Below, in pieces: positions 8,746-26,889 of a DNA stretch of 38,847 bases. Each line of letters begins with the position of its first letter. Within the stretch, counting starts at the first letter, position 1. This DNA is from Kiritimatiellota bacterium (GTDB taxonomy: Bacteria; Verrucomicrobiota; Lentisphaeria; Victivallales; JAADHT01). Made by a program: the position numbers and the translations under genes. The notes beneath the pieces are model-generated. The model had not been told where the DNA came from, did not search any database, and saw only the letters and a list, made by a program, of their open reading frames with translations. Where the stretch lies: positions 1-38,847 of the forward strand of contig JAUUYH010000001.1 in assembly GCA_030590505.1 (NCBI GenBank), read 5' to 3'.

Positions 8746-9075
8746 TTACGCTTCAATATTAGCACCGACAACTGACGCCATCTGCATCATATTAATTGTC
8801 TGTCCTTCTTTTAGAGCAGTTAGGTTAGTAACTTTTCCGCTCTTGCTTTTTGAATTTGTATTTTTGAAAATAGTCAACAGTTTTGCATCTGCAACAATAA
8901 ATTTTCCACCGTTTTCAGGTTTTCCATTTTCAGATCTAGTCTGAAGTTTATTTGCTTTGATGTAATCCCATAACTGTTTTGTAATAGCTGTTCTTGGAAG
9001 CTCTTTTTCACCAAGAAATGCTGCTAGGTCTGCTTTCAATTTTACCGGTTTGCTAAGTCCTTTTGCTTCTGCCAT
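8746..9075 (-). CDS. SWIB/MDM2-domain protein
   Basis: LKADLAAFLGEKELPRTAITKQLWDYIKANKLQ...FIVADAKLLTIF fits the SWIB domain pattern. I prefer ATG at 9075 (AAGGAGAG 5-6 nt upstream) over the track start at 9117. Confidence 0.8.
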   Translation of the reverse strand: MAEAKGLSKPVKLKADLAAFLGEKELPRTAITKQLWDYIKANKLQTRSENGKPENGGKFIVADAKLLTIFKNTNSKSKSGKVTNLTALKEGQTINMMQMASVVGANIEA

Positions 9076-9506
9076 CTTCTCTCTCCTTACTTGAGTATTA
9101 AATTTAGGAACTTTCAAGATTTTCTGAATAAAAATCCTCTCCTATGGTTCGTAAAATAACCTATATTCAAAATTTTCCAAATGCAATATAGTAGATTTCT
9201 ACTCCTTTTAGCCACTTAGCGTCAAAATTTGCGTACTTCGCAACATATTATAACTTCATAAGGCGTTGAAAAAGAACATCAACAGCGGTTTAGGAGCATC
9301 TTCAAGGAATAACTCATCCAATTGGGGAAATTCTGCTAAAATTCGGAGAAAATGTTAAAAATGAGCAGATTTTATACTCTTTTTACAGTTTCTCGGAGGA
9401 TTAATTTGACTGGAACTGCCAGTTGATATGCTTCTCGGTTGTTTTTTGGTGTTCAATTGCTTCATAATTGATCCTTTCTCTGTCTGGAGTTAGTCGCGGC
9501 TTTATG

Positions 9507-9713
9507 TCACTCTCCCAGAAACTCCTGTTCGTTTCTTAAAAATGCACAATTTCCATCTTTTAGTAAGATCGTCTCTTCATTCTCTTTTATATGACCTTGA
9601 TCTTCCCGCGCCTTCTTGGTGTCCCTCCAGAGATGTTCATGTAACCCTATGCGGTCTACTGGTTGACGTTTTAAAATATTTGATATTCGTTCGATTTCTG
9701 TCATCTTTTTCAT
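9507..9713 (-). CDS. Hypothetical 68-aa ORF, possibly a truncated gene remnant
   Basis: No Shine-Dalgarno sequence. The N-terminus MTEIERISNILKRQPVDRIG vaguely resembles N-termini of uroporphyrinogen-decarboxylase-family proteins, then stops. It sits in a 750-bp gene-poor gap. Confidence 0.25.
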   Translation of the reverse strand: MKKMTEIERISNILKRQPVDRIGLHEHLWRDTKKAREDQGHIKENEETILLKDGNCAFLRNEQEFLGE

Positions 9714-9751: not shown

Positions 9752-9779
9752 CTTGATTTACATGAGTTTCTGCTTATAG
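9752..9779 (+). promoter_or_regulatory. Putative sigma70-type promoter upstream of the ABC/glycosidase locus
   Basis: TTGATT (9752-9757), 16-nt spacer, TATAGT (9774-9779), about 97 nt upstream of the ATG at 9876. Confidence 0.3.
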
Positions 9780-9875
9780 TAAGCCTTCACGAGTTTTGGT
9801 TATTAATAATGGTTATAAAGCTTTATCCATAAAATAGGGATTCCCCCCATGACTCAAACAATGTAAATAGAATAA

Positions 9876-12800
9876 ATGAAAAACTTATATTTAAAATTTG
9901 GAATTTGCCTGGCAGTAACGTTAGTTATAATATTGCTCTTTTTCAACCTGCTCTCTTTTATAATGCGTCCTGCATTGTCGAATGAATTTGTCATGCCATC
10001 CGCAGAAAGGATTGCCGAAGTGGAAGAGTTGAGACATCCAAAGCCCCCCCCGATCATTTATCAGAAAGTTGACTATTCAGAAGGGAAAAAGGGAGCATGG
10101 TATCCTAAGGGTGAAGCTCCTATACTCAAAGAGTTGATTGCAGAGGGAAAACTTCCTCCGCTTAATGAACGTGTTCCTACAGAACCACTCGTACTTGAAG
10201 GTGTTGATCATGTTCATAACTATGGAGGGACATGGATGCGACTTGGTTCGAATGCTTCTGAAGTATATTGTGTTGCGAACAGACTTGGATATGCACATAT
10301 AGTTCGTTGGTCTCCCATGGGAAAGCCGATAGTTCCACATGTAGCTAAAAATTTTACAGTGTCTGACGATAACAGGGTCTACACTTTTGAATTACGCAAA
10401 GGAATGAAATGGTCTGATGGGCATCCTTATAATACAGATGATATTAAGTATAATTGGGAAATGGAGGAGAATGACCCAATGTTAGCAAGCTCTCCGAGTC
10501 AAGTATATCGCTTCCAGGGAAAACTTGCAAAAATTGAGTTTTTAGATAAATATAATTTTAAAATTACTTTCGATAAACCAAATCCTCTTTTTCTTCCCAA
10601 AATAGCAGGCGCTTATGGGCGTTGGCTCTGCAATTCACCCGCTCATTTCCTCAAACGGTTTCATCCCAGAATAGGTGATCAGAAACTTATAGAAAAATTA
10701 CAGGATAAATATGGCCTACCAAGTGCAAAATCCGTTTATCGAAAAATAAAAGACGTTACAAATCCTGAGCTTCCACGTATAACTCCATGGATAATAAAAC
10801 GACCTGTTAAAGGTTCACCTTCAGAAGCAGTACGTAATCCGTATTACTTTGTTGTTGATTCTGCAGGGAATCAACTGCCTTACCTTGATCGCATAATATT
10901 TACTGCTCGATCATCAAATATGATTACACTCAGTGCTGCCAGTGGTGAAGTGTCAATGCAAAATAAAAAAATAGATCCTTCGCAATATACATTATTAATG
11001 GGAAACTCTCAGAAAGAGGGGTATCAATTATATCACTGGACATCGCAAGGACGGTCAAACTTTACGATATATTTTAATTTAGAATATAAAGTGAATCCTG
11101 ATAAACCTGAGACAAAATGGCTCAAAAAAACAATTAGTTCAAAAGAGTTCAGAAGAGCTATGTCAATATCGATAGATAGACAGCGTATGATTGATTCAGA
11201 GTTTAATGGAATAGTAGAAGCTGCTCAATTATCTCCATCAAGAAGCTCTTACTTTTTTAATGAAGAAGTCTATAAATCAGCAACTGAATATGATCCTGAA
11301 ACGGCGTGTAAATTATTGGATAATCTGGGATTAAGCAAGCGTGACAGTGAGGGATATCGTACATTTCCTGACGGTTCACACATGAGTATCTATTTCTCAA
11401 TTCCTACTCCTGACGACGCAGAACGAGCTCAATTTGTAGTTGATGACTGGAAGAGAGTAGGCGTAAGAGTTATTATTAGGGTTTTAGGCTTACATTTAAT
11501 GAAGAGACGTGTTACCGCAGGTGAAGCTGAAATGTTTTTATCAAATAGCGTAATACAATTTTTCCCCTTGCGCCCTTGCTTCTCCTTTGCTCCTGGAGTT
11601 GATCTGTGGTATGAGGCTGGTGGGATGTTTGGAAGTAAAGATTCCGAATCATTAAAACACAAAGCACCACCCAAGGATTCAGATTTATATAAATCTTTAA
11701 AATACTATTCTGAAGCAAAAAAATATTCCGATCCCGCAAAACAGAAAATTTATTTGGATAAAATGTTACAAATAGTCGCTGATAATGTTTGGCAAATTAA
11801 TATTGCAACGCCACTTCCTGTTTTAGCCATTGTTAAAGATGGATTTAAAAACGTTCCTCGTGATCTCTCATTCGCCTGGTCGCATCAATCGCCAGCCAAT
11901 GGTGGAGTTGAAACTTTCTGCTGGGAAAAAGAGTATCTACAGAAAAAGAATATTTTAGAGATGGATGAGGCTGCGAAGGAGTCTATTAAATATCAGATAG
12001 TGAATACAACAACAGATAAAGTGAGTGATTCGTCTGTTGATAATTACACTCCGAAAGGAATAGGAAAACTGACTCAAGATGCAAAATCAGTAAAAGTTAG
12101 TATAGCACTAAATATTGTAAAATACCTTTTAATTGGTATTGCTCTGCTTTTTCTATCTATGGCAGCTCTGAAACACCCATACATACTTCGCCGTCTTGCA
12201 TTAATGGTACCAACTTTGTTTATTATTTCTATTTTAGTTTTTGTTGTTATTCAGCTACCACCCGGAGATTATATTGATACTAAAATAGCTGCAATGGAGG
12301 AAGTAGGTGAAGAGGTTGATGCACAGGAAATAGAACAACTTAAAGCCATGTTTTTTATTGATGACTCTATGGCAGTACGATATGCTAGATGGATGGGATT
12401 GAAGTGGTTTATTAGTTTCGATAATGAAGATAGAGGGTTACTGCAGGGGCATATGGGCCGTTCCATGCGTGACATGCGTGTAGTAAATGAACTCATTGCC
12501 GAACGAGTGATTTTAACTTTCTTCATCTCCTTAGGGACGCTATTGTTCACTTGGGCAATCGCCTTTCCGGTTGGTATATATTCAGCAGTCAAGCAATATT
12601 CATTTTTTGATTATGTGTTTACAGTTTTCGGATTTTTGGGAATGAGTATTCCAGGTTTTATTTCTGCTCTTCTTATGATGTATGCTTGTGAACGTTTTAT
12701 GGGATTTACACCGACGGGGCTGTTTTCTTCAGAATTTGGAGCTAGGCCTGACTGGAACTGGGATAAAATTATTGATCTATTAAAACATGTCTGGATACCG

Positions 12801-13205
12801 GTTATGATTATGGGAGTTGCCGGAACAGCAGGAATGATTAGAGTTATGCGTGCAAACTTGCTTGATGAACTAAAAAAACCGTATGTTATCACAGCCAAAG
12901 CCAAAGGAGTAAGACCTCTTAAACTTCTTTTTAAATATCCTGTTCGTATGGCACTCAATCCATTTGTTTCAGGAATCGGCGGAATATTCCCAAGACTCGT
13001 ATCGGGGGGAGCAATCGTAGCGATTGTTATGAGCTTGCCCACTGTTGGACCGTTGTTGCTAGAAGCTCTCCTTGTTCAGGATATGTATATGGCTGGTTCT
13101 CTTATAATGTTCTTCAGTCTGCTCGGAATATTCGGAGTACTTGTAAGTGATCTTCTCCTACTTGTACTGGATCCGCGTATTAGATTCGGAGGGGGTACAC
13201 GATGA
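9876..13205 (+). CDS. Fusion protein: signal-anchor + family-5 (Opp/Dpp/Nik-type) substrate-binding domain + extra TM helix + OppB/DppB-like ABC permease
   Basis: 1109 codons with no interruption. SBP family-5 signature region YTFELRKGMKWSDGHPYNTDDI. Hydrophobic helix IALNIVKYLLIGIALLFLSMAAL at nt 12102-12170. Canonical OppB N-terminus KHPYILRRLALMVPTLFIISILVFVVIQLPPGDY from nt 12171. C-terminus LDPRIR. Confidence 0.85.
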   Translation: MKNLYLKFGICLAVTLVIILLFFNLLSFIMRPALSNEFVMPSAERIAEVEELRHPKPPPIIYQKVDYSEGKKGAWYPKGEAPILKELIAEGKLPPLNERVPTEPLVLEGVDHVHNYGGTWMRLGSNASEVYCVANRLGYAHIVRWSPMGKPIVPHVAKNFTVSDDNRVYTFELRKGMKWSDGHPYNTDDIKYNWEMEENDPMLASSPSQVYRFQGKLAKIEFLDKYNFKITFDKPNPLFLPKIAGAYGRWLCNSPAHFLKRFHPRIGDQKLIEKLQDKYGLPSAKSVYRKIKDVTNPELPRITPWIIKRPVKGSPSEAVRNPYYFVVDSAGNQLPYLDRIIFTARSSNMITLSAASGEVSMQNKKIDPSQYTLLMGNSQKEGYQLYHWTSQGRSNFTIYFNLEYKVNPDKPETKWLKKTISSKEFRRAMSISIDRQRMIDSEFNGIVEAAQLSPSRSSYFFNEEVYKSATEYDPETACKLLDNLGLSKRDSEGYRTFPDGSHMSIYFSIPTPDDAERAQFVVDDWKRVGVRVIIRVLGLHLMKRRVTAGEAEMFLSNSVIQFFPLRPCFSFAPGVDLWYEAGGMFGSKDSESLKHKAPPKDSDLYKSLKYYSEAKKYSDPAKQKIYLDKMLQIVADNVWQINIATPLPVLAIVKDGFKNVPRDLSFAWSHQSPANGGVETFCWEKEYLQKKNILEMDEAAKESIKYQIVNTTTDKVSDSSVDNYTPKGIGKLTQDAKSVKVSIALNIVKYLLIGIALLFLSMAALKHPYILRRLALMVPTLFIISILVFVVIQLPPGDYIDTKIAAMEEVGEEVDAQEIEQLKAMFFIDDSMAVRYARWMGLKWFISFDNEDRGLLQGHMGRSMRDMRVVNELIAERVILTFFISLGTLLFTWAIAFPVGIYSAVKQYSFFDYVFTVFGFLGMSIPGFISALLMMYACERFMGFTPTGLFSSEFGARPDWNWDKIIDLLKHVWIPVMIMGVAGTAGMIRVMRANLLDELKKPYVITAKAKGVRPLKLLFKYPVRMALNPFVSGIGGIFPRLVSGGAIVAIVMSLPTVGPLLLEALLVQDMYMAGSLIMFFSLLGIFGVLVSDLLLLVLDPRIRFGGGTR

Positions 13206-14317
13206 GTAAAAAAACAAAAACTACTGCCAGCTACCTTAGTCAGTGGCAATTAATTAGACTGCGCTTTTTTAAACATAAACTTGCCGCAGCATCTCTCTTT
13301 ATTGTCGTTGGACTATATGTTGTCGCAGGATTTAGTGAGTTTTTTGCAACTTACTCTACCGACATGATGAACATAAACCAGCAGTATAATCCTCCAATGC
13401 CGGTAAAATTTAATTTTTCAGACGGTCTATATGTTAATAAAGTAAAGCGAAACATTGATCCTGTCTCTTTTCATAAAGAGTATACCGAAACAGATGAAAA
13501 AATAGGCCTTACTTTTTTTGGAAAAGGACATTCGTACAAACTATGGGGAGTAATTCCCTGCTCTAGGCATCTATTGGTTGCAACTAACACAACTGAAGAA
13601 ATAGGTACGGATAAAGAGACGTTTTTTTATCTTTTTGGTAGCGACAAATATGGCCGTGATATTTATACCCGGCTGATTGCAGGAGCTAGGGTCTCACTCT
13701 CTATCGGTCTTATCGCCATCGCAATAAGCTTTGTATTGGGTATCGTTATAGGTGGTATTTCCGGATATGTTGGAGGAAAAACTGATCTGATTATTCAGCG
13801 AATTATTGAAATTATCGGAGGGTTCCCAAAGCTTCCGCTATGGATGGCTATTGCCGCTGCAATGCCACAGGATTGGTCGCCGTTAACTGTATATTTCTGT
13901 ATCACAGTGGTTCTCAGTTTAATGGGTTGGACGGGTCTTGCCAGAACTGTAAGAAGTAAACTTCTTCAATTACGGGAAGAGGATTACGCTGTTGCTGCCT
14001 CTCTTTTGGGCGCAAGTCACAGTCGTATAATTTTTAAACATCTGATTCCAGGATTCACCTCGCATATTATTGTTACCTTGACCATGCGTGTGCCTGGTAT
14101 GATTTTAGGTGAGACCTCGTTGAGCTTTCTAGGTCTTGGTCTGCGACCACCAGTTGTTAGTTGGGGAGTGATGTTGCAGGATTGTATGAATATGCAGGCA
14201 GTCGCCCTTTATCCGTGGTTGCTATTGCCACTCTTTTTTATCGTTGCATCAGTATTATCGTTGAACTTTTTAGGAGACGGACTCAGGGACGCAGCAGATC
14301 CATATTCTGCAAAATAA
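13202..14317 (+). CDS. ABC transporter permease, OppC/DppC-like
   Basis: FGSDKYGRDIYTRLIAGARVSLSIG motif, N-terminal periplasmic loop, C-terminal LGDGLRDAADP. ATGA overlap with the upstream stop. Confidence 0.9.
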   Translation: MSKKTKTTASYLSQWQLIRLRFFKHKLAAASLFIVVGLYVVAGFSEFFATYSTDMMNINQQYNPPMPVKFNFSDGLYVNKVKRNIDPVSFHKEYTETDEKIGLTFFGKGHSYKLWGVIPCSRHLLVATNTTEEIGTDKETFFYLFGSDKYGRDIYTRLIAGARVSLSIGLIAIAISFVLGIVIGGISGYVGGKTDLIIQRIIEIIGGFPKLPLWMAIAAAMPQDWSPLTVYFCITVVLSLMGWTGLARTVRSKLLQLREEDYAVAASLLGASHSRIIFKHLIPGFTSHIIVTLTMRVPGMILGETSLSFLGLGLRPPVVSWGVMLQDCMNMQAVALYPWLLLPLFFIVASVLSLNFLGDGLRDAADPYSAK

Positions 14318-14347
14318 CAAATAAAACAACTTGTCAAAAGATAAATT

Positions 14348-15397
14348 ATGTCAGAAAAAATAAAAAATGTATTAGAGATCAGCAATTTAAAGGTCTCATT
14401 CTTTACGGAAGAGGGTGAGATTCGTGCTGTGAATAATGTCAACTTTTCAATCCCAAAAGGAAAAATCATGGCCTTAGTTGGCGAGTCAGGATGTGGAAAA
14501 AGTGTGACATCCTATTCCATTTTGCGTTTAATTCAAAAACCTGGAAAGATTCTGAATGGTGAAATTCTATTTCATCCTTCGGATGGAAAAAAACTTGATA
14601 TATTAAAGCTTGATGAGAAATCTGATAAACTTTTTAATTTACGTGGCGGAAAAATTAGTATGATTTTTCAAGAACCAATGACAGCTCTGAGCCCTGTCCA
14701 TACGGTCGGAAATCAAATCTCTGAAGCAATCCTTTTACATCAAAATGTTTCAAAAAAAGAAGCCCGTAAAAAGACAATTGATATGCTTTCCAAGGTTGGT
14801 ATTCCAGGAGCCGAACAGCGTGTAGATCAGTATCCGTTTGAATTAAGTGGTGGAATGCGCCAGCGTGTTGTTATTGCAATGGCTCTGGTTTGTAATCCTG
14901 AACTCCTGATTGCAGATGAACCGACAACCGCACTTGACGTAACTATCCAGGCACAGATTTTAAAACTGATGAAGGAGTTGCAGAAGGATTTAGGCACATC
15001 AATTCTGCTAATTACGCATGATTTGGGAGTTGTTGCGCAAGTCGCAGATGAAGTTGCTGTAATGTATCTTGGCAGGGTTGTGGAAAGATCTGATGTTTAT
15101 ACAATTATGAAAAATCCGCGTCACCCATACACTATGGCTCTTTTAAGATCGCTACCAAGCTTAAGTATGGATAAAGCAAAACTGCCTTCAATAAAAGGCA
15201 GTGTACCGTCATTACAGGAGATCCCCGAAGGTTGCCCGTTCCATCCAAGATGTCCTCATTATAAAGAAGATGTGTGCGATATAGGCACTCCTCCAGACTT
15301 GGTTTCGATCGGAAAAGATCACGATGCAGCATGCCTAAGAGTAGACGATATTGAATTAATCGAAAAAAAGAGTAAACATATAGGGAGTTTTTATTAA
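14348..15397 (+). CDS. ABC transporter ATP-binding protein, OppD/DppD-like
   Basis: Walker A GESGCGKS, signature LSGGMRQR, Walker [13 protein letters not shown], Opp-type C-terminal extension HPYT...CPFHPRCP...C. Confidence 0.95.
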
Positions 15398-15429
15398 AAC
15401 TTCCCTGTTAAATTAATAAATAAAATATT

Positions 15430-16497
15430 ATGAAAGAAAAATCCTGTAACAAATTAGAAGAGTCTAAAGTGGCTAGAGACGCAGTTGATAGTTCCAGTTT
15501 GGAACAGCCATTACTACGCGTGCGTGGTTTGTGCAAATACTTCCCTATTTTTAATAAAGGAATTATGCGCAAGCAGATAGGAATAGTTAAGGCTGCTGAT
15601 GGTATAAGTTTTGACCTTATGCCTGGTGAAACTCTTGGCATAGTAGGAGAGAGTGGATCAGGTAAAACTACGGTCGGAAGAACCATTTTAAGAGCACTTG
15701 ATCCCACGGATGGGGAAGTTAGCTTTTTTTGCGATAATGACATTATTGATTTGGCAACAGTTCCACGCAAAAGGTTGAAAAAATTACGTACTAAAATGCA
15801 GATGATTTTTCAGGACCCTTTTTCTTCATTAAACCCAAGAATGACTGTTCGGGATATCGTTGCAGAGCCTTTAATAATCCACAAGATGGCCAAAGGGAAG
15901 GAGTTAGAGGATAAAGTTACAGAGATGTTGATCAAGGTAGGATTGCAACCAGAACACAAAATGCGTTATCCTCATGCATTTTCAGGAGGCCAGCGTCAAC
16001 GTATCGGGATTGCCCGGGCATTAATTATGAAGCCATTGTTGGTTGTTGCCGACGAAGCGGTTTCTGCTCTTGATGTTTCTGTTCAGGCACAGGTAATTAA
16101 TCTCATGAAAGATCTGCAGCAGGATCTTGGACTTACTTATATTTTTATTGCTCATGATTTGAGTGTAGTTAAGCATATCTGTGATAAAGTTGCCGTTATG
16201 TATGCCGGAAAAATCGTTGAACTTGCTAAGACCGAACAACTATTTAAAGATCCTAAACATCCATACACTAGAGCTCTTTTACGAGCTGTACCTAGCCCAG
16301 ATCCGAACATAAAAATGGAATTCGGACTTGAAGGTGAAGTCGCCGATCCAGGAAAATTACCTCCTGGATGTGCATTTCATCCACGGTGCCGAGAATGTTT
16401 TGATAAATGCAAATCAGAAATACCTGAACTTCTTCAACTGAAAAAGGGTGGCCTTCTGTCATGTCATATTAATTCTGAAAACAAAAAGGAGAAGTAA
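15430..16497 (+). CDS. ABC transporter ATP-binding protein, OppF/DppF-like
   Basis: Walker A GESGSGKT, signature FSGGQRQR, Walker B LLVVADEAVSALD, C-terminal HPYTRALL...CAFHPRCRECFDKC. Confidence 0.95.
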   Translation: MKEKSCNKLEESKVARDAVDSSSLEQPLLRVRGLCKYFPIFNKGIMRKQIGIVKAADGISFDLMPGETLGIVGESGSGKTTVGRTILRALDPTDGEVSFFCDNDIIDLATVPRKRLKKLRTKMQMIFQDPFSSLNPRMTVRDIVAEPLIIHKMAKGKELEDKVTEMLIKVGLQPEHKMRYPHAFSGGQRQRIGIARALIMKPLLVVADEAVSALDVSVQAQVINLMKDLQQDLGLTYIFIAHDLSVVKHICDKVAVMYAGKIVELAKTEQLFKDPKHPYTRALLRAVPSPDPNIKMEFGLEGEVADPGKLPPGCAFHPRCRECFDKCKSEIPELLQLKKGGLLSCHINSENKKEK

Positions 16498-17717
16498 TGA
16501 ATAAAGAAGATTTTTTTAATACAGTAAATAATCTGCCCGCATGGGACACACATAATCATCTAGATGGCAGTACACATTTATCTGCTCAGAATTTTTTGGA
16601 TATAGGTCATTATTTTTGGTTCTGTCGAGAACTTAATGCCGTTGGTTATCCATTTAGTGGAGTAGGAAAACTACCAGAATCTGAAAAACTGAATTCTGCA
16701 ACGTTTATTGATGCTTTAGATAAGGGGCGCAATACTTATTGGAATCAGACCGTACGTACTTCCATTAAAGAATTATTTGATATAGAACTGAAAGATGTCA
16801 ATAGCATTAAAGCCCTTAATGAAAAAATTGCGGTAACTGCTGCTGATACACAATGGGCTGAAACTGTATGTAAAAAAGGTAATATTGCAAAGATCACTAT
16901 CATTCCGACCTATAAAGAAAACGGGCTTGAAACAATTAAGGATCGTCACTATTACTACAAGATATTTAACCCCATAAAAGATGCGGAACTCGAAGCCGTA
17001 TTGAGCTCGGAAAATCAGTTGGATGCCGCAAAGCAATTAATTGAAGCAAAGCAGGAAGAGTTGACCGATTTTTCCAATTCAGGTATTTCAGTATTGCGTT
17101 GTAATTTTCCTTTTGATTCCGATAATGGATTGGCTTCAGACTCTCCAAACTTGACTCAAACAGGAAATACGCCGCGCGATATAAAGCAATTCGTCGGACA
17201 TGGAGTATATAATGCTGCCAATGAGATGAAATTACACTTGCAGATCTTTGTTGGAATGGCTTCATTCCCTGATCAGATGATAAGTGGTGCTCATGGTCAC
17301 TGTTCATTAAATGACACTAAAAGAATTTTTAATATGTCGGGAATCTTTGATATGTACAATAATATCACATTTGAGATTATTAATGCATCGGAACTTAATT
17401 CTCTCGACCTTGTGCAAATGGCAAGAATCTTTAAAAATGTTATTCCTGGCGGACTCTGGTGGTTTAATTATCGCGGAAGCGTCTTTCAGTCTAACATGCA
17501 ATATCGTTTCGAGGCTCTCCCTGCATGTCGCTCTTCCATCTTGGCTACAGATGCAAGATGTATTGAATGGGCTTATATCAAAACCCGCTTTGTCAAAAAA
17601 CTACTTGCTCAATTTTTATGGAATCAGATAGAAAATGGATGGGCTGATGAAGAAATTGCGATCTACGCAGCAAAACAGTGGCTCTATTCTACTGCAGATC
17701 AATATTATACTGCTTAA
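16497..17717 (+). CDS. Glucuronate (uronate) isomerase-like amidohydrolase-fold protein
   Basis: DTHNHL...IGHYFWFCRELNAVG parallels E. coli UxaC DYHCHL...GDHYKWRAMRTNG. C-terminal GGLWWFNYRG...ATDARC parallels GSGWWFNDQK...LTDSRS. About 60 aa shorter than UxaC as I recall it. TAATG overlap with the OppF-like stop. Confidence 0.7.
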   Translation: MNKEDFFNTVNNLPAWDTHNHLDGSTHLSAQNFLDIGHYFWFCRELNAVGYPFSGVGKLPESEKLNSATFIDALDKGRNTYWNQTVRTSIKELFDIELKDVNSIKALNEKIAVTAADTQWAETVCKKGNIAKITIIPTYKENGLETIKDRHYYYKIFNPIKDAELEAVLSSENQLDAAKQLIEAKQEELTDFSNSGISVLRCNFPFDSDNGLASDSPNLTQTGNTPRDIKQFVGHGVYNAANEMKLHLQIFVGMASFPDQMISGAHGHCSLNDTKRIFNMSGIFDMYNNITFEIINASELNSLDLVQMARIFKNVIPGGLWWFNYRGSVFQSNMQYRFEALPACRSSILATDARCIEWAYIKTRFVKKLLAQFLWNQIENGWADEEIAIYAAKQWLYSTADQYYTA

Positions 17718-17812
17718 GAGCAAAACTCTTACATATTTATACTTGCACAAGTCAGCTGATATTAGAAGATAAAACTTCTACAACGAATAAAAGATGAACA
17801 GGAAAAATAAAA

Positions 17813-19504
17813 ATGAATGAAGAAGAAATAAAACAAATTATCTCAAAAATGAGTATAGAACAGAAAATTGGAGCTGTCTTTACCTTTGGATTCAATGGAA
17901 CTGTCATTACACCCAAGCATATTGAAGCAATTGAAAAATTTCATTGCGGTGGACTGAGAATTACCCCGAATGGAAGAAGTTTTGGATCTTATGTGGATCC
18001 AAAAAGTAAGCGTACGGTGGTAAAAATTGATGAAGGACGCATTTTCTATAAAAATGATAATCCACCAGTCGTATCAGCACGGCAATTTTCAGAAATATTT
18101 GATAAACTGCAGGCAATCGCAAAAAAACGTCCACTAGGACTACCTTTGCATTTCTCCTATGATCAGGAAAGTGGTTCAGGTAATGTTCCTTTTTCCGGAG
18201 TTAAAACTTTTCCTCCTTTTATGGGCTTAAAAGCGACTGATAACATCGAAATTGCTCGTAAGGCCGCTCTTTATCAAGGCAAGCAATCTAGAGCTATTGG
18301 ATATCATATATGCCACTCACCTGTTGTAGATGTAAATACAAATTCGGTTAATCCTGAAATCAATACCAGAAGTTTTTCTGATAGGGCCGAAGAGGTTGCA
18401 GCGTGGGCTGCTGAATCTTGTAAAGGATACAAAGAAGCCGGAATCGTTGCGACTGCAAAACATTTCCCTGGACGTGGAGATTCAGATACTGACGCTCACT
18501 ACTCTGTTCCTGTTATTAATGTTGACAAAAAGACTCTTTTTGAACGAGAACTTTTACCGTATCGTCTATTAATTGAACAAGTAGATCTGCCCTCAATTAT
18601 GACTGCACATTCAATGTACCCTCAAATTGATCCAGATACGATTTCAACTGTTTCTAAAAAAATTGTAACTGGTATTTTACGTGATGAACTTGGATTCGAT
18701 GGAGTTATTACAACTGATAGCATGACGATGGGTGCATTGGCTGAACGTTATGGTGTTCCTGATGCATGTGCGAGGGCTCTGGTCGCTGGATCAGATCTAA
18801 TTTTAATGAAGGCCCAGAATAATCTGATTGATGCGTCATGCAGTACTGTTATGGAGTATCTAGATGCAGGTACGCTTACGGAAAAGGATCTCGATGAAAA
18901 GATTTTTAGAATTCTGCGTATGAAAAGCAATTATGGGATTTTTGGTAAGACTTCTGATATCGATGAATTTGAAAAACTCTCAAAAGATAAAGAGTTGATT
19001 GAGCTAGTTAGCGAAACTGCAAGATGTACCACTCAACTTGTCAAGAATGAAGCTGATGTGCTACCCTTAAAAAAAGATTCAAAAGTTCTTATTATCGAAC
19101 AAACTGCGGCGAATACAAATACACTTGAAGAACATAATGGGATCTTTTTTGAGTCATGCATGCAATATACAAATGATATTACATACTTGGAAGTAGGTTC
19201 AACCTATGATGATGGCGATATCGAACAGATTAGAAATGCAGTTACAGGTTACGATACAATTCTTGTAACTAATTTCTTCAATTATCGTCGTGGACAAAAT
19301 ACATGGTTGATTGAAGAACTTTGTGCACTGAAAGATAAAAATATCATTTTAATAGCAAACACCCCTTACAAAATATCAATTCCAAAAAATTCAGAAACAA
19401 TAGTAATTACCTATGGTTACAGTCGTGAATCAATGGAAGCTGCAGCTGGCACAATCTTCGGAACAGTAGAACCAGGAGCAATCACACCTGTTTCAAATGC
19501 GTAA
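17813..19504 (+). CDS. Glycoside hydrolase family 3 protein (NagZ/beta-glucosidase-like), no signal peptide
   Basis: KHFPGRGDSDTDAHY and GVITTDSMTMGAL (nucleophile Asp region). N-terminus MNEEEIKQIISKMSIEQKIG is not hydrophobic. Confidence 0.9.
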   Translation: MNEEEIKQIISKMSIEQKIGAVFTFGFNGTVITPKHIEAIEKFHCGGLRITPNGRSFGSYVDPKSKRTVVKIDEGRIFYKNDNPPVVSARQFSEIFDKLQAIAKKRPLGLPLHFSYDQESGSGNVPFSGVKTFPPFMGLKATDNIEIARKAALYQGKQSRAIGYHICHSPVVDVNTNSVNPEINTRSFSDRAEEVAAWAAESCKGYKEAGIVATAKHFPGRGDSDTDAHYSVPVINVDKKTLFERELLPYRLLIEQVDLPSIMTAHSMYPQIDPDTISTVSKKIVTGILRDELGFDGVITTDSMTMGALAERYGVPDACARALVAGSDLILMKAQNNLIDASCSTVMEYLDAGTLTEKDLDEKIFRILRMKSNYGIFGKTSDIDEFEKLSKDKELIELVSETARCTTQLVKNEADVLPLKKDSKVLIIEQTAANTNTLEEHNGIFFESCMQYTNDITYLEVGSTYDDGDIEQIRNAVTGYDTILVTNFFNYRRGQNTWLIEELCALKDKNIILIANTPYKISIPKNSETIVITYGYSRESMEAAAGTIFGTVEPGAITPVSNA

Positions 19505-19644
19505 GGGCAGAGCTCAATGAAATTTGTAAAGTTCAGAAATGAAAATGTTTTGATACTGTATCCCTCCAACGGACGTGGAATAAAACCCCACCTTGGTGGG
19601 ATTTATAATTTAGAAAATTTAAGAGAATATAAAGGAGATAGCTC

Positions 19645-22600
19645 ATGATTATTTTTGATTGTCCATCTTGTGGAACCAAATATGAATTAGATGATGCTCA
19701 TGCTAGCAGCAAAGCTGCTTGTGAGATCTGTAAAAATAAATTTTTAGTGCCCGCTAACAGCAATGAAAAGGCTACGCTGATTCAGGCAACCCCGCCTCAA
19801 TCAACTTCAGTTAACATCAATAAACGAGAAATGACTGATTCTGAAAATAACCAAGAATCTATTCAATCTAGTGAGGAAGTGTTTTCCGAAGAAAATACTA
19901 CATCAACCAAGACGCGACTACAGAAGGTAATTCAAGCCATACTTGGGGCTTCAAGATCACCTAATCGGAAACTGATTGGCACAAGTTCAATAATAATTGT
20001 AGGTCTGATTATATTATTTGTAGTTTTTATTATGATCAAACAAGCATCAACTTCATCACCTTCATCTCCTTCATCTCCTTCATCACCTGGAAAAAAATAT
20101 ACAATTAAACTTACGCAAGTTGAGGACAACTCAGAAATTTTGTTTAAGCAGGCAAAAGAGTGGTGTGATCAAAATACAGAGGAATACGAAGGAATTGCAA
20201 TGCGCTACAGGCGGGTTATTCAAGAGTGCGATGGCACTATTTATGCTGAGAAAGCTGAGAAATTGCTGGCTGATATTTTATTAAAACAGAATCAGGCCAT
20301 CCAAGCCGTGCTGGTTCAGATAAAAGAAAAAGGCGACCTGCTTGTAAGCGAAGAGAAGTATAATCAAGCCATTGAATACTACGAAAATTACAATGGCAAA
20401 TTTGTTCAAAAGACAAATAGTGATCGCATGAAATTTATTGCTGATATAAAAACAATTCTTGAAAAGAAGAGAGTCGCGGAAGAGCAAATAAGGCTTGAAC
20501 AACAGAGATGTAAAGATCTTTTAATTGATTCAGTTGTCACTGTTCTAATACAGAAAGGCCCGAACGATGCACTAGGGGAAATTGATGCAAAATTGATAAC
20601 TTATGATTTCCTTAAAGATGATGATGAGATAAAGGACATATATGAATTATTGAAAAAAAATATAAATATCCGAAGTCTTGTGCAGAGTGCCTTAAAAGAA
20701 CAAATTGGAAAAACCTTAACTTTGCAGTTAAAGAACGGTTCCCAAAAGACACTGAAAATTTTCAATGTTACAGAAAACAATGTGCTTGAAGGAAAAAAGA
20801 GAATTGGAGCATCGTCATTCATTACTCTCAAATTGCCACTAAATAAATTATCAAAAGCAGAGCAATTTAAGCTAACGGGCATCTCCTCCAATACTCCTGA
20901 GGTTAATCTTGGAAAAGGTCTTTACGCATTAAAAAACAAAGTACATTCTCTTTCGAAAAAGTATTTTGAACAAGTCGGAACTCTTCTGCAGCCAAAGCTT
21001 TTATCAGTAATAGAAACTTTATCTGATAACCAAATAGAACAATCTGCGGAAAAAGATTTTTACTATGTATTAAAATTTGCAAAAATAGATGTAACTGTAA
21101 AATTTGATGTTGATAAATATGTTGCCGCTTTGGGCCCCCCTTTAAGCTCATCTATAATAAAACAACTTAAGAGCAAGACAAAAGCCTTTATGGAAACATA
21201 TTCAACAACTGAATTTATAAAAACAGCTGATCCTGTTATTCAGAAAATTTTGGCAATGAAAAGTGAGTTGAAGAATTCCTATACCACCAGGAAGTATAGG
21301 CCGGAAACAAGTGCGAGTATCGCAAGTTTTGAATATGCATATTTTGATAATGCACAGAGCAAAATGGTCTATATTCCATATTCTAAAACTGAAGATTGCA
21401 TCTCTGATTTTTCATCTTGTGGCTATAAAGGTGGAGGAATAGCACTACCAGATGTACCTATTGTTATAACTTTAAATCCAAGTGGTAGCGGTAAGGATGA
21501 TACCGCACATATTCAGAAAGCAATTGACAAGATTGGTGCAATGAATCTTCAAAAAAATGGATTCCGCGGAACCCTGCTACTCAAAAAAGGCGTTTACAAC
21601 ATAACAGGAACCCTCAAGATTGTTAAAAATGGCATTGTCTTGCGCGGAGAAGGTAATGGCAAAAACGGGACGGTATTATTTGCAACTGGGGAGAAAAGGG
21701 ACTCATTGATCATTGTTGATTCTGGGAAGAGACCAACTCCTAGAAAAAATCCGAGTAAAATTACCGACTTGGTTGTTCCTGTTGGAGCAAAAAGTTTTAA
21801 TGTTGCCTTGATTAGCCAATTAAAAGTAGGAGATCATATAGCCGTTGTTCGACATGTCAATAATGCATGGATTAAGAAAATAGGTATGGATAATATTCCT
21901 AAACGAAGTGATGGAAAGCCAATCACGAACTGGACAGCAAGACGTTATAATATTTCTTATGATCGAGTAATTACTGCAATAAGGGGAAAACAAATAACGA
22001 TCAATGCACCTATAGTCTGTGCGATAGATGAACAATGGGGAAGTGGCACAGTTTTTAAATTTGATCCATATAGAGGTAGAAATATCGGTATTGAAAACAT
22101 ACGTGCTGTTTGCAAATTTGATGCAGGAAAAGTTGAAACAGCTGGAGGCAGAACTCACTATGTAGATGAAAATACATGTAGTCGCGTGATACAAATGGAC
22201 TATGTGAAAAATAGCTGGGTACGTGATGTCATATCTATTCACTTTAACCATTTACTGCAAATTGGAAAAGGGGGGCAATTTATAACGATACAGGATTGTG
22301 CATATCTTAAGCCAGTATCTGCCGTAACTGGAGGCCGACGTTATGCTTTTTCCATTAACGGACAACAAAATTTGATTCAACGTTGTTATGCTGACTCCTC
22401 ACGACATGCATATTCTTACGGTAGCAGTGTGCCAGGGCCTAATGTCTTTTTAGATGTTCTTTCAACGAATAATTACGCCTCTTCTGAACCACATCAACGG
22501 TGGGCTACTGGAGGTTTATACGACAATTGTTCTGGCGATTTAGCAATAATAAATCGTGGCAATATGGGGACAGGCCATGGATGGGCTGGGGCTAATTTTG

Positions 22601-22926
22601 TCGCATGGAATACAGAGGGTAGTATCATAGTTCAAAGTCCACCTACAGCATGCAATTATTCCATAGGGCATGTAGGTGACAAACTAAAAGTATCTTTTGA
22701 GGGACTAGATGGTTTATGGGGCTGTTTTGGCGAGCATGTTAAGCCACGCAGTATCTATCTTACGCAACTGTGGGAACGTCTTGGAGGGAATGCGGTGGGG
22801 GATATTACGACGAACTCACAACGCAAGGGGAATATTTATTCGGAATTAAAGCAGAAATATGCAATAGATGGAGATCAAATATGGGGAGCTGGTATTGCTC
22901 CGGAAGATCCATACTCTAATAAATAA
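19645..22926 (+). CDS. Zn-ribbon / single-TM / Ser-Pro stalk / helical region / right-handed beta-helix (pectate-lyase-3-like) protein
   Basis: CPSC...CEIC (Cys 6, 9, 26, 29). TM at about residues 110-131. [30 protein letters not shown]...[18 protein letters not shown] from about nt 21440, typical of the N-terminal cap of pectate_lyase_3 / GH28-GH55-like beta-helices. AAGGAG 8 nt before the ATG. Confidence 0.75.
20053..20088 (+). repeat. 4 x 9 bp in-frame tandem repeat (TCATCWCCT) encoding (SSP)4
   Basis: Units at 20053-20061, 20062-20070, 20071-20079 and 20080-20088, read directly. Confidence 0.9.
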
Positions 22927-22937
22927 GGACATGGCAA

Positions 22938-25187
22938 ATGAATAGCATGGGAACAGAAAACAAAATTTTCTTTAACAAGCCCGCAAAAAAGTGGATTGAA
23001 GCATTCCCCCTTGGGAATGGTAGGCTTGGAGCAATGGTTTTTGGTAAAACTGCACCAAGATCACAGGGGACTGAAAAGATTGCCCTTAATGAAGATAACA
23101 TATGGTATGGTGGCAAGCGTGACAGGCTGAATGCAGACACAAATAAATATATTTGCGAAATTCGCAAACTTCTCCTGGAAGGAAAAACAGAAGAAGCGAG
23201 TAAACTTTCTCGTATGGCATTTACTTCCAATCCGAAAAGGCAGGGATCGTACCTTCCTGCAGGTGACTTATGTATTAGCTTTGATAATCATTACGGAGAG
23301 GTGTCAAACTATAAAAGAGAACTTGATCTTGAGACAGCCGTTGCAACTGTGAAATATGACTTGAACAATGTTAAATATTCACGTACACATTTTGCCAGTG
23401 CTGTTGATCAGGTGGTTGTTATCCGTATTGAAACTGACTCGGACTCTTCTCTGGGGATGAGGGTAAATCTTTCCCGGCAGCAGTTTGAAGGGCTTTCGGG
23501 GGCAGATGGAGATGACACAGCATATCATAACTTCCAAGCTGGCCCTGATGGCGTAAACGTCTGCATGATGGTAAAAGCTCTCTCTGATTGTGGTAAAACT
23601 AGGACTATTGGTGATTTTGTAGATATAACTGAATCGTCGGCAGTCACTTTGCTACTTTCAATAAATACTGATATCAAAGGAGATGATCCTGAAAAGCTTT
23701 GCCGCGACCAGTTAGCACAAGCATCTGCGAAAGGATTTGCTGCACTGCTAGAAGATCATATCTGCGAATATCGCAAATATTACTCAAGGGTGGAACTACA
23801 ACTGGAAGCCGATGAAGCGATTTCTAAATTGCCAACAAATGAGCGTTTAGAGAGAATTGCGAATGACGCAGAAGATGTAGGAATGGTGGCCCTCTATTTT
23901 AATTTTGGACGTTACCTGCTTATCTCATGCAGCCGACCAGGAACCATGGCTGCAAATCTTCAGGGGATATGGAACGATAAGATGCTACCACCTTGGGGAT
24001 CAAAATATACGATTAATATTAATTGCCAGATGAACTATTGGCCTGCTGAAGTTTGTAACTTAAGCGATTGCCACCAACCACTCTTTGACTTAATAGAAAG
24101 AATGAGAGAAAGCGGCCGCGTAACTGCCCGTAAACTCTATCAATGTAAGGGGTTTGTTGCGCATCATAATACAGATAATTTTGCGGATACTGCACCAGCG
24201 GATCCCACAGCTACTGCTGCTATATGGAATATGGGGGCAGCATGGCTGAGCATGCACTTATGGGAACATTATCTTTTTTCATCTGATAAGGTTTTCCTTG
24301 CTGATGTAGCGTACCCAACAATGAAAGAAGCTGCAGAATTTCACCTAGAAAATATGTTTGAAGATGCTGAGGGGGAATTGATGACAGGCCCTTCAGTTTC
24401 ACCTGAAAACACCTATGTAAATGACCATGGCATTATCAGTACAATTTGCCTCTCTCCGACTATGGACAGAGAAATCCTACTGGAACTTTTCCAGGCTATA
24501 ATCGATGCAGACACTATTCTTGAACAAAACGATCCATTTGTGGAGCAGCTTAAAGCTGCAATGGCAAAAATCCCACCCGTCAGCATTGGAAAACATGGAC
24601 AGGTAATGGAATGGCTGAAAGATTATGATGAACCCGAGCCCGGCCACCGACATATCTCCCATCTCTACAGTTTATATCCCGGAAATAACTTCTCACAATC
24701 AAAAACTCCAGAACTATTTGCGGCGGCTGATATCACATTGCAGCGCAGACTCTCACACGGAGGAGGTCATACAGGTTGGAGCAGAGCATGGATAATCCTA
24801 TTCAGAGCTAGGTTAAAGCAAGGAGATGAGGTTTACGAAAACCTGAAGGCACTTTTTGCGGTCTCAACATGTCCAAACCTTTTTGACACACATCCTCCAT
24901 TCCAGATAGATGGAAACTTCGGTGCAACTGCGGGAATCGCAGAAATGTTGATACAAAGTCATGAAGATGAAATAACTCTTCTACCAGCACTACCAAAAGA
25001 GCTTCATACAGGTAGTGTAAAAGGCTTGCGTGCTCGTGGAGGTTTTGAACTCGATTTTGATTGGAAAAATGGGGATCTAGTCTCTGTTAAAGTAAAATCT
25101 CTCGCAGGGAATAACTTAAAACTTCGCATACATGGAGAGAAGGAATATCTCTTAAATAGAGATACCATCCAGGGGGAAATTTACTGA
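22938..25187 (+). CDS. Glycoside hydrolase family 95 (alpha-L-fucosidase type), no signal peptide
   Basis: N-terminal [26 protein letters not shown], then [16 protein letters not shown] and GHTGWSRAW, motifs I associate with GH95. Confidence 0.9.
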
Positions 25188-26375: not shown

Positions 26376-26837
26376 TTAATGTGCACACCCTGCACCGTGT
26401 TCATGAGGATTAATTGCTACCTGATACGTGTTTTCTCCGATCTTGATAGATATTTTTCCATTGATATCTTTCTTGAGAATATCTGAAGAAACTTCATATT
26501 TGCTCTTATCTTCTCCGACAACTGTTGTTTTAAGCTGTTTTCTTTTTTCCTCGACAATAAGATTGATGCGTGGTGCCTTTTCGATGACCAATGCCGTCTT
26601 CTTATCACTTTTGAGTATCTGAAGAGTTACTTTGCCAGCTGTTTTATTCTGGGTCAGTTTGATAGTGGCAATATTGTCACCAACAGTCAGTGTTTTTATG
26701 ATCTCTTTGTGATGCCCTGAATGGTCGTGAGCGTGGTCGCTATCATGATTATGGGCATGTGCGTCTTGTGCAGTTACACTACCACCATAAATTGCAACAC
26801 TACCGAGTACCGCGATTAGTAACATTTTCTTTTTCAT
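26376..26837 (-). CDS. His-rich periplasmic protein, last gene of the metal-efflux operon (putative metal-binding accessory protein)
   Basis: ATG at 26837 with AAGGAGA upstream (the track start at 26900 would overlap the RND gene). Signal peptide, then AQDAHAHNHDSDHAHDHSGHHKE. C-terminus HEHGAGCAH. Confidence 0.65.
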   Translation of the reverse strand: MKKKMLLIAVLGSVAIYGGSVTAQDAHAHNHDSDHAHDHSGHHKEIIKTLTVGDNIATIKLTQNKTAGKVTLQILKSDKKTALVIEKAPRINLIVEEKRKQLKTTVVGEDKSKYEVSSDILKKDINGKISIKIGENTYQVAINPHEHGAGCAH

Positions 26838-26889
26838 CTTATCTCCTTTTTTTTTGTTTTGATGAATAGTTCGTTTATTATAGGTCTTT

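Follow-up and report, generated by a model that had tools for sequence, protein, structure and literature searches.

Results

A predicted cluster for glycan capture, import and trimming

A stretch of 38,847 nucleotides (nt) from an uncultured Kiritimatiellota bacterium (contig JAUUYH010000001.1; hereafter, the window) was analyzed, with attention to a group of eight genes at positions 9876-25187 of its + strand. These genes, named g1 to g8, encode an Opp-type ABC importer, a uronate-isomerase-like protein, two glycosidases and a membrane-anchored beta-helix protein. They probably form a cluster with which a diderm cold-seep bacterium captures a glycan at the inner membrane, imports the resulting oligosaccharides and trims them in the cytoplasm. 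The case for a glycan is made by two traits of the locus: the cytoplasmic location of the glycosidases of families GH95 and GH3, and the presence of the Opp system as sole importer, which overlaps of stop and start codons tie to the first catabolic gene.

An initial annotation, made from the letters alone, had listed eight co-directional open reading frames (ORFs) with two overlapping junctions. All of them are present, at the coordinates of its ORF list (aa, amino acids):

9876..13205, + strand: g1, 1109 aa; cluster-C solute-binding domain fused to an OppB-type permease
13202..14317, + strand: g2, OppC-type permease; OppC_N and BPD_transp_1 domains (Pfam), Opp4C at 1e-74 (NCBIfam)
14348..15397, + strand: g3, OppD-type ATPase; ABC_tran and a Cys-rich C-terminal oligo_HPY domain (Pfam), OppD at 4.6e-105 (NCBIfam)
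15430..16497, + strand: g4, OppF-type ATPase; ABC_tran and oligo_HPY domains, stop codon overlapping the g5 start
16497..17717, + strand: g5, 406 aa; cytoplasmic uronate-isomerase-like protein of the amidohydrolase superfamily, from a small divergent subfamily
17813..19504, + strand: g6, 563 aa; cytoplasmic two-domain GH3 of the NagZ type (predicted beta-N-acetylglucosaminidase)
19645..22926, + strand: g7, 1093 aa; zinc ribbon, transmembrane helix, linker, helical region and beta-helix domain
22938..25187, + strand: g8, 749 aa; cytoplasmic GH95, predicted alpha-L-fucosidase or alpha-L-galactosidase

From g1 to g8, successive genes are separated by -4, 30, 32, -1, 95, 140 and 11 nt. The negative values correspond to an ATGA at 13202 (g1/g2) and a TAATG at 16495-16499 (g4/g5). 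Genes g1 to g5 are thus closely packed, and 11 nt separate g7 from g8. The overlap between the stop codon of g4 (OppF) and the start codon of g5 suggests translational coupling.

A solute-binding domain fused to the permease

In the single ORF of g1, Pfam detects SBP_bac_5 (PF00496, 6.6e-50, aa 152-561) followed by BPD_transp_1_N/BPD_transp_1 (aa 769-1103). Hydropathy analysis places an N-terminal transmembrane helix or signal anchor at aa 8-26 (nt 9897-9953) and an extra transmembrane helix at aa 747-765 (nt 12114-12170), which joins the solute-binding protein (SBP) region (aa ~70-674, nt 10083-11897) to the OppB module. The latter starts at aa 768 (nt 12177) with the positively charged sequence HPYILRR, a normal cytoplasmic OppB N-terminus, and continues with the permease helices. 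The positions of the anchor and of the extra helix therefore indicate that the binding domain is extracytoplasmic and, unless the anchor is cleaved, tethered at both ends.

The transporter has the parts that define the PepT family (TC 3.A.1.5), namely a family-5 (cluster C) SBP, OppB and OppC permeases and two oligo_HPY ATPases, save that one 1109-aa ORF takes the place of a separate soluble or lipid-anchored binding polypeptide. The best NCBIfam models for g1 to g4 are Opp4B, Opp4C, OppD and DppF/OppF, with every score below the equivalog cut-off. Walker A, signature and Walker B motifs are visible in the translation of g3. Both ATPases end in a Cys-rich oligo_HPY domain (CPFHPRCP...C...C at 15300-15397 and CAFHPRCREC..KC...C at 16380-16497); in some Opp/Dpp ATPases, domains of this kind bind an Fe-S cluster. 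Part of the population in run X1 (depth 10.7 of 17) has 10 extra nt, AAAAAAGAGT, inserted at position 15363, 34 nt before the oppD stop codon; the insertion would alter the last residues of the OppD ATPase.

When g1 was used in a word-index search, 5,244 proteins were found at E ≤ 1e-10. The best 120 of them are all 1,065-1,174 aa long, share a common architecture and show 43-51% identity with g1; those with a taxon name come mostly from Phycisphaerae, Sedimentisphaerales and Planctomycetota, and one from a Spirochaetes metagenome-assembled genome. The family alignment shows conservation of both the anchor and the extra helix. A frameshift artefact was considered as the origin of the fusion and rejected on the grounds that over 100 homologues of ~1,100 aa have the same architecture. 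As judged by sequence, the SBP-OppB fusion is a conserved family of ~1,100 aa found mainly in Planctomycetota. The fusion described in the initial annotation is therefore real, and widespread. Literature searches retrieved no published description of an Opp-type SBP-permease fusion.

A scan of metagenomes yielded 573 relatives of the fusion. Of 79 loci that were fetched, 27 carry a true fusion, while some 40 more distant loci have a gene for an SBP of 650-750 aa directly upstream of a separate OppB gene. This unfused pair is likely the ancestral state. The arrangement of subunits was counted only in fusion loci with enough flanking DNA, about 20 of which were informative:

Fusion with OppC, OppD and OppF, as in the window: 9 loci
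Fusion with OppC only: 5 loci
Fusion alone: 6 loci

The existence of loci with the fusion and OppC only, or with the fusion alone, suggests that paralogous systems share their ATPases and, in some cases, OppC as well. Tandem paralogues were also seen: two fusion-plus-OppC pairs lie side by side in one locus (L018, 3260-14452), and another locus (L020, 3267-9937) has two back-to-back fusion genes with no OppC or ATPase gene within 6.5 kb.

Predicted ligand of the transporter

The best match of the g1 SBP in the PDB is 5ipw (4e-84), a Thermotoga maritima 'OppA' structure without a ligand complex. The closest characterized relative of the g1 SBP is the pectin-binding protein SPH1118 (4e-66, aa 90-674). 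Further matches include the alpha-galactoside-binding protein AgpA, the mannoside and cellobiose binding proteins of T. maritima and the chitin-oligosaccharide binding protein of Vibrio (PDB). SPH1118, from Sphingomonas sp. A1 (PDB 7VEQ/7VER), has pectin as its reported ligand, and the peptide digest tryptone caused no thermal shift (PMC9314435). The aromatic pair of SPH1118 that stacks against sugars, Phe592/Trp594, is kept in g1. An oligosaccharide is thus a plausible ligand for the g1 SBP.

The genomic context of related transporters was also examined. The four closest fusion homologues are 46-51% identical to g1. At locus L001 the fusion is accompanied by three GH29 fucosidases, a member of the g7 beta-helix family and an AraA-like isomerase, and a contig from ENA with a close fusion homologue carries GH2 and GH9. 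A GH32/GH43/BNR protein and a glycoside hydrolase (GH) of the MGH1-like type are found at L002, and three sulfatases at L003. For the wider family, a Pfam-based census was made of 23 fusion loci that are more distant, with 127 neighbour ORFs in all. It recorded GFO_IDH_MocA (4), MR_MLE (4), PhyH (6), AP_endonuc_2, Amidohydro_2, GH2, GH3, rhamnosidase, sulfatase and PfkB, with oxidoreductases and dehydratases of the sugar type among them. Taken together, context and homology lean towards a carbohydrate at the window locus, with a mixed picture in the wider family.

Two glycosidases without an export signal

The GH3 (g6), the GH95 (g8) and g5 each begin at the first possible start codon of their ORF and have a hydrophilic N-terminus, two traits that exclude an export signal. 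The lack of signal peptides reported in the initial annotation was thus confirmed.

In g6, Pfam identifies the GH3 N-terminal domain (PF00933, 5e-69) and the GH3 C-terminal domain. Its 12 best PDB matches are beta-N-acetylglucosaminidases or uncharacterized GH3 entries (6k5j, 2.3e-59; Bacillus subtilis YbbD/NagZ, 3.4e-46), and glucosidases and xylosidases score far below. The translation contains the motif KHFPGRGDSDTDAH, with the Asp-His dyad, and the nucleophile region ITTDSM. The dyad motif, KH[FI]PG.G....D.H, is presumably that of GH3 NagZ, in which Asp and His reportedly form the catalytic dyad. Against the NagZ equivalog of NCBIfam, g6 scores 130.7 bits (6.8e-38) and does not pass the cut-off of 207, which fits its two-domain form since the NagZ of Gram-negative bacteria is a single-domain protein. 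Protein g6 is hence a putative NagZ-type beta-N-acetylglucosaminidase, and the residue implied is N-acetylglucosamine (GlcNAc) rather than a generic GH3 sugar. In other words, the earlier assignment to GH3 stands, while the generic activity that went with it is narrowed by the PDB matches.

The catalytic (alpha/alpha)6 domain of GH95 was found in g8 (PF22124, 8e-174), together with the N- and C-terminal beta-sandwich domains PF14498 and PF21307. The protein matches PDB entries 7kmq (5e-164) and 4ufc (4e-162) and aligns over its full length to XacGH95, BoGH95 and BH0842. A T-I-N-I-N sequence of g8 aligns to T370/N372/N374 of BoGH95 (BACOVA_03438), and the Glu of its SPE sequence to E501. In BACOVA_03438, the Glu is the general acid and the Asn pair activates water; Thr370 touches O6 of L-galactose, and the fucosidases AfcA and FucOB have His at that position, a polymorphism that its authors did not consider decisive for specificity (PMC4491172). 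The g8 product possesses a full GH95 catalytic set with the Thr variant of the L-galactosidase type, so that the previous proposal of a fucoside or a galactoside as its target is maintained.

A third glycosidase gene lies farther downstream. At 36535-38517 (+ strand), the window encodes a GH97 (GH97_N, catalytic and C-terminal domains; N-terminus MDMKNTLQDCSNTTATPPQEEEN) that also lacks a signal peptide. The organism seems to keep several exo-glycosidases in the cytoplasm.

A divergent relative of uronate isomerases

Protein g5 falls below the family thresholds for uronate isomerase: 14.2 bits against a cut-off of 25 for UxaC in Pfam (PF02614), and 23.9 against 387 for PRK02925 in NCBIfam. When a profile was built from 20 members of the g5 family, it matched PDB 4i6v (4.9e-19) and the uronate isomerase BH0493 (1e-8) over the full length. 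The invariant residues H19/H21 of g5 fall on H26/H28 of BH0493, D352-A-R354 on D355/R357, and W321-W322-F323 on WWF. We take H26, H28, D355 and R357 to be metal or catalytic residues of BH0493, the roles of which have reportedly been described. The AlphaFold2 model of g5 has a predicted local distance difference test score (pLDDT) of 90.3, and its top 30 Foldseek matches in the PDB are all uronate isomerases (4i6v, BH0493, TM0064 or UxaC), with template-modelling scores (TM-scores) of 0.70-0.78 and 13-17% identity. Hence, of the three enzyme assignments made initially, GH3 and GH95 are borne out by Pfam, whereas the UxaC-like one misses the cut-offs of Pfam and NCBIfam and is recovered through the PDB profile and the fold.

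The g5 family is small, with 24 detectable relatives (25 hits, g5 included) from Lentisphaerota, Phycisphaerae and Poribacteria. Around one of these homologues lie genes for Fe-ADH, AP_endonuc_2, GFO_IDH_MocA and a URO-D-like protein, with a GH88/KduI/KduD cluster near; others are accompanied by GH16, sulfatases and Zn-ADH, by a URO-D-like protein and GFO_IDH_MocA, or by an SASA esterase. Such neighbours suggest a function in sugar catabolism that is not specifically linked to uronates. Protein g5 is best described as a predicted uronate-isomerase-like aldose-ketose isomerase.

The membrane-anchored beta-helix protein

The product of g7 begins with a cytoplasmic CxxC...CxxC zinc ribbon (aa 4-33), whose match to the MJ0042 type is below the Pfam cut-off. 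A single transmembrane helix (aa 113-131, nt 19981-20037) is followed by a Ser/Pro linker, by ~400 aa that are mostly helical and, on the periplasmic side, by a beta-helix domain (aa ~573-1074, nt 21361-22866). In the AlphaFold2 model, the C-terminal ~500 aa form a right-handed parallel beta-helix (pLDDT 90, predicted template-modelling score 0.91). Both the hydropathy profile and the model thus bear out the view that the large domain lies beyond the transmembrane helix.

Foldseek found 78 PDB matches to g7 at E ≤ 1e-3; the top 50 listed are all beta-helix proteins, nearly all of them active on glycans. The structural neighbours are depolymerases and lyases from phage tailspikes, the Klebsiella K1 capsule lyase among them, followed by GH110, GH141 and GH28, and a viral library gives the same picture. 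The TM-scores are only 0.35-0.46, and identities are 10-15%. The best Pfam match of g7 is PF12708, at 16.9 bits against a cut-off of 27; DUF4955 and DUF6298 score lower, and no NCBIfam match was obtained. Among 20 members of the family, none reached a Pfam cut-off (PF12708, DUF4955 and DUF6298 gave weak scores), and a profile search of PDB sequences returned only weak matches to an N-terminal cap motif. In g7 this motif is 'DDT..IQ.AID', with a weak match to PF12708 and to PDB 7chu. Literature searches on the beta-helix family, DUF4955 and DUF6298 found nothing relevant.

The family to which g7 belongs is large. An exhaustive HMMER search with aa 560-1093 retrieved 3,817 representatives (clusters at 50% identity) at E ≤ 1e-3, of which 1,399 remain at E ≤ 1e-30, and the closest share 45-49% identity; a word-index search with full-length g7 found nothing, probably swamped by the low-complexity N-terminal half. 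Named relatives, e.g. from Lentisphaerota, are all 'hypothetical protein'. Every family-invariant residue is kept in g7; E258, D401, R361/H362 and H391 of the C-terminal segment (in its own numbering) are among these invariants. Six other members that were inspected all have a signal peptide, and none combines a zinc ribbon with a single transmembrane helix; on visual reading, their long N-terminal extensions resemble Ig-like, discoidin-type or carbohydrate-binding modules. Members of the family are found beside the three GH29 fucosidases of L001, with a Pel9A-like protein and GH109 in L008, and with LacI, GDSL esterases, SASA, GH27 and GH10 in L090. The context is in part carbohydrate-related in L088 and is not so in L089. 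We conclude that the C-terminal domain of g7 is most likely a glycan depolymerase, hydrolase or lyase, of an unnamed family, as predicted from its modelled fold.

A trio of genes was observed in both L088 and L090, where the beta-helix member is preceded by a LacI-type gene and by a small N_methyl/SBP_bac_10 (prepilin-like) gene.

Cell envelope and compartment

Downstream of the cluster, the window contains an efflux operon on the - strand (26376-33010), with genes for an outer-membrane factor (31613-33010), a membrane-fusion protein (30190-31620), a pump of the resistance-nodulation-division (RND) type (26890-30090) and a small His-rich exported or periplasmic protein (26376-26900, HAHNHDSDHAHDHSGHH). 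The operon looks like a metal-efflux system. An RND pump encoded with a membrane-fusion protein and an outer-membrane factor implies an outer membrane and thus a diderm cell, in which the SBP domain of g1 and the beta-helix of g7 face the periplasm, not the cell exterior. Cleavage of the polymer, which the initial annotation had placed outside the cell, must therefore be moved to the periplasm, at the inner membrane.

Domains of a SusC-like TonB-dependent transporter or of a SusD-like lipoprotein were not detected in any ORF of the window. Planctomycetes have been reported to take up whole polysaccharides into the periplasm.

Gene junctions, regulation and synteny

Two sequence elements were noted in the non-coding parts of the locus:

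9753..9780, + strand: candidate promoter-like site (TTGATT, 16 nt, TATAGT), 96 nt upstream of g1, from a consensus scan
19587..19600, + strand: short GC hairpin, CCCACCTTGGTGGG, in the 140-nt gap between g6 and g7, with a 5-bp stem and a poor T-tract

The number of promoter-like sites in the region is not above that expected from shuffled sequence, and terminator-like sites show no enrichment either. The hairpin may be a partial, weak terminator, and the gaps of 95 and 140 nt permit internal promoters or attenuation.

The possibility that the g6/g7 gap, the largest of the cluster, marks an assembly chimera was rejected. Contigs from two independent cold-seep samples (the source material was cold-seep sediment metagenomes) cross the junction without differences, and loose ends at 19583 and 19602 are minor variants; the gene arrangement is thus not an assembly artefact.

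Among the ORFs of 9.1-25.2 kb, with antisense and small intergenic ones taken into account, none matched a regulator family, as anticipated by the initial annotation. Rfam gave no match in the locus or in the 758-nt region upstream, where no convincing operator-like repeat was seen. This absence had been deemed unusual for a catabolic locus, a view that comparison with related loci does not support: only one of the four closest loci has a candidate sensor gene (L002, a hybrid kinase-type protein ~4 kb away), and AraC regulators account for two neighbour ORFs in the census of 23 loci. LacI genes accompany the beta-helix family members of L088 and L090.

The 758-nt upstream gap contains a 68-aa ORF (9507-9713, - strand). 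It bears a weak resemblance to a URO-D-like N-terminus (pairwise E 0.002 against L006), shows no similarity to L004 and has no Pfam match, and was rejected as a hidden regulator. Possibly it is what remains of a gene. Homologues of g5 often have URO-D-like genes as neighbours.

Proposed pathway and alternative explanations

The following sequence of events is proposed. The glycan would enter the periplasm through an outer-membrane route. There, the beta-helix domain of g7, held at the inner membrane with its zinc ribbon in the cytoplasm, would cut it to oligosaccharides, an activity proposed from the fold. The doubly tethered cluster-C domain of g1 would then capture an oligosaccharide and pass it on to the channel of OppB and OppC, with OppD and OppF as the driving ATPases; here the architecture is observed and the ligand is a prediction. 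In the cytoplasm, given their families, catalytic residues and lack of export signals, GH95 would take off terminal alpha-L-fucose or alpha-L-galactose and the NagZ-type GH3 would take off beta-GlcNAc. Finally, to judge from its fold and catalytic residues, g5 could isomerize the released aldose or uronate to a ketose for catabolism. The substrate is likely a non-sulfated glycan that bears GlcNAc as well as alpha-1,2-linked fucose or L-galactose, for instance an exopolysaccharide of microbial origin or a glycan of the mucin-like kind. Import followed by trimming inside the cell, as initially proposed, agrees with the need of cytoplasmic GH95 and GH3 for an oligosaccharide importer, the Opp-type system being the only transporter in the locus; the ligand, however, is predicted, and the context in the wider family is mixed.

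Several observations weigh against such a pathway. The best PDB match of the SBP, 5ipw, is described as peptide-binding and has no known ligand. The census of the wider fusion family also shows peptidases M16 and M81, an amidase and gamma-glutamyltranspeptidase, and the substrates of the whole family probably fall into several classes; with neighbourhoods so mixed, membership of the fusion family alone is no proof of a glycan substrate. With gaps of 95 and 140 nt and a hairpin, the genes could be transcribed as separate units. The study behind the metagenomes also includes three metatranscriptomes, none of which contained transcripts of the locus; in the DNA, the organism reaches a depth of only ~2-10x. 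No outer-membrane importer is encoded nearby. Conserved synteny of the eight-gene set was rejected after tblastn searches of g5, the GH3, the C-terminal domain of g7 and the GH95 against 87 related transporter loci: GH95 or g5 occurs in none of the 87, a weak GH3 was found in L024 only, and a beta-helix member in L001 only. The gene set is therefore not syntenic with the transporter in any of these loci.

The uronate component of the initial annotation faces objections of its own. In SPH1118, a positively charged pocket for acidic sugars is lined by arginines, of which Arg47, Arg438, Arg466 and Arg496 are not conserved in g1; Arg57 has an Asn as its counterpart, and the next residue of g1 is the family-invariant R136. 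A uronate or polyuronate ligand by analogy with SPH1118 was therefore dismissed as unsupported, as most pocket arginines are absent. The neighbourhood of the locus also lacks a gene for a uronate-releasing enzyme. With g5 as its sole support, the idea that uronate enters catabolism through a glucuronate-isomerase-like enzyme is weakened: the fold and the catalytic residues of g5 agree with it, but the protein fails every family threshold. In the fucosylated, uronate-containing glycan once suggested as substrate, the fucose or L-galactose is retained on account of GH95 and GlcNAc is added on account of GH3, while the uronate loses ground.

Other explanations can be offered for the same genes. 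One is that the eight genes are independent adjacent units: an operon g1-g5 for a small sugar or sugar-acid derivative, a separate g6 and an unrelated pair g7-g8, in which case the pathway would be a by-product of the clustering of carbohydrate genes. The two long gaps with the hairpin at 19587-19600, the near absence of GH95, g5, GH3 and beta-helix genes from the 87 related loci, and the fact that the commonest neighbours of the fusion family (GFO_IDH_MocA, MR_MLE and PhyH) act on monomers are all in its favour. However, the genes lie on one strand with no intervening divergent gene or regulator, the hairpin is weak as a terminator, the cytoplasmic GH95 and GH3 need imported oligosaccharides for which no other importer is present, and L001 repeats the association of the fusion transporter with a beta-helix member and alpha-L-fucosidases. 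We regard this explanation as unlikely. Less probable still is a peptide or muropeptide importer engaged in cell-wall recycling, with the GH3 cleaving GlcNAc from imported GlcNAc-anhydro-N-acetylmuramic acid-peptides and with the GH95 and beta-helix genes as unrelated neighbours. MppA-OppBCDF imports peptides or muropeptides in Escherichia coli, and NagZ is a peptidoglycan-recycling enzyme in Gram-negative bacteria. The NagZ type of the GH3 would suit such a role, all four transporter parts score best against Opp/Dpp/nickel models, the top PDB match of the SBP is annotated as oligopeptide-binding, and peptidases, an amidase and gamma-glutamyltranspeptidase occur in some loci of the fusion family. 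On the other hand, genes of the AmpD, LdcA, AnmK, MurQ and AmpG types were not found in the window, GH95 is co-oriented and 11 nt downstream of g7, the two-domain, 563-aa GH3 best matches the chitin-type beta-N-acetylglucosaminidase 6k5j, the closest fusion homologues adjoin carbohydrate-active enzymes (CAZymes), and in the SBP subfamily the one relative whose ligand has been reported is a pectin binder that gave no thermal shift with tryptone.

A further alternative is that g7 is a sensor, its periplasmic beta-helix binding a glycan and its cytoplasmic zinc ribbon signalling, which would supply the missing regulator. The locus has no conventional regulator, and the combination of a zinc ribbon, a single transmembrane helix and a large periplasmic domain was seen in none of the six other family members inspected, which have signal peptides instead. 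Yet the zinc ribbon scores below the Pfam cut-off, and to our knowledge the MJ0042 type does not serve as a DNA-binding or anti-sigma module; moreover, g7 keeps all the invariants of a family whose other members resemble secreted enzymes, and related loci commonly lack regulators too. A sensor is accordingly the most improbable of these explanations, and we give it very little credence.

Comparison with known systems

The cluster is conceptually ordinary, and its novelty lies in three uncharacterized protein families: the g1 fusion, the g7 beta-helix and the g5 branch. As in the Opp/Dpp-type oligosaccharide importers of T. maritima and Pyrococcus furiosus and in the chitin-oligosaccharide system of Vibrio, a cluster-C SBP, OppB/OppC permeases and two oligo_HPY ATPases are encoded beside glycosidases. 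In those systems, however, the binding protein is separate, whereas that of the window is fused to OppB through an added transmembrane helix; identity is low and partial. SPH1118 is of the same large (~600-aa) cluster-C subtype, matches nearly the whole domain and shares the Phe592/Trp594 pair, but it is a free periplasmic protein with four pocket arginines that g1 does not conserve.

A receptor domain covalently linked to the transmembrane domain is also found in GlnPQ and OpuA, where the receptor is permanently tethered at the translocator. These belong to the polar-amino-acid and osmoprotectant families and have cluster F substrate-binding domains, homodimeric transmembrane domains and two or four receptors. 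The system described here is instead Opp-type, with a family-5 (cluster C) domain and a fusion that would pair with OppC. Since OppC is encoded by a separate gene, the transmembrane domain would be heterodimeric, and one receptor per transporter is expected.

In bifidobacterial clusters for fucosyl-oligosaccharides, a binding protein captures the substrate, which is imported and de-fucosylated by an intracellular GH95. The grouping of genes for cleavage, uptake and trimming is common to those clusters, to the polysaccharide utilization loci (PULs) of Bacteroidetes and to the window locus; the latter differs in having no CUT1-type transporter, no SusC/SusD pair and no adjacent regulator, and in its diderm host an outer-membrane step is still missing from the scheme. 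Regarding g5, the fold is shared with BH0493, UxaC and 4I6V (an uncharacterized protein of Planctomyces limnophilus), and HxH, WWF and D-x-R are aligned; it differs in its identity of only 14-17% and in its membership of a small Lentisphaerota/Phycisphaerae subfamily. Similarly, g7 has the same overall fold as phage tailspikes, GH110, GH141 and GH28, from which it is set apart by its low TM-scores, the lack of any Pfam match above cut-off and the anchoring by a zinc ribbon and a transmembrane helix.

Much of the degradation of complex glycans in the sea is due to Planctomycetota, Lentisphaerota and related bacteria, and the uptake of the products, in the absence of SusCD systems, is poorly understood. 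A speculative extension, to which we lend limited credence, is that the fusion is a lineage-wide modular uptake device of Planctomycetota and related bacteria of the Planctomycetes-Verrucomicrobia-Chlamydiae (PVC) group. Each paralogue would contribute its own tethered receptor and half-channel, encoded beside the enzymes for one substrate, and many would use OppC, OppD and OppF encoded elsewhere; with an inner-membrane-anchored depolymerase of the unnamed beta-helix family, this would amount to periplasmic 'cut and capture at the membrane'. If true, such a strategy would differ from SusCD PULs as well as from classical ABC systems with a free SBP. The three families also provide testable handles: an Opp-family fused receptor-permease with thousands of homologues, a beta-helix family of ~3,800 representatives and a divergent branch of uronate isomerases. 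Assigning substrates to them would improve the annotation of many metagenomic genes now called 'oligopeptide permease' or 'hypothetical protein', and the g7 family could add a new CAZyme family.

Additional features of the window

Between g7 and the GH95 gene (positions 19000-25000), GC content increases from 0.35 to 0.43. Rather than a foreign origin, the reason may be that the N-terminal half of g7 is rich in Lys, Asn and Ser.

Upstream of the cluster, a 123-aa SWIB/MDM2-domain protein is encoded at 8746-9117 (- strand), near the gene for a 777-aa Ser/Thr kinase (3354-5687). In bacteria, the SWIB/MDM2 domain is known mainly from Chlamydiae and their relatives, and its presence here fits an origin in the PVC group.

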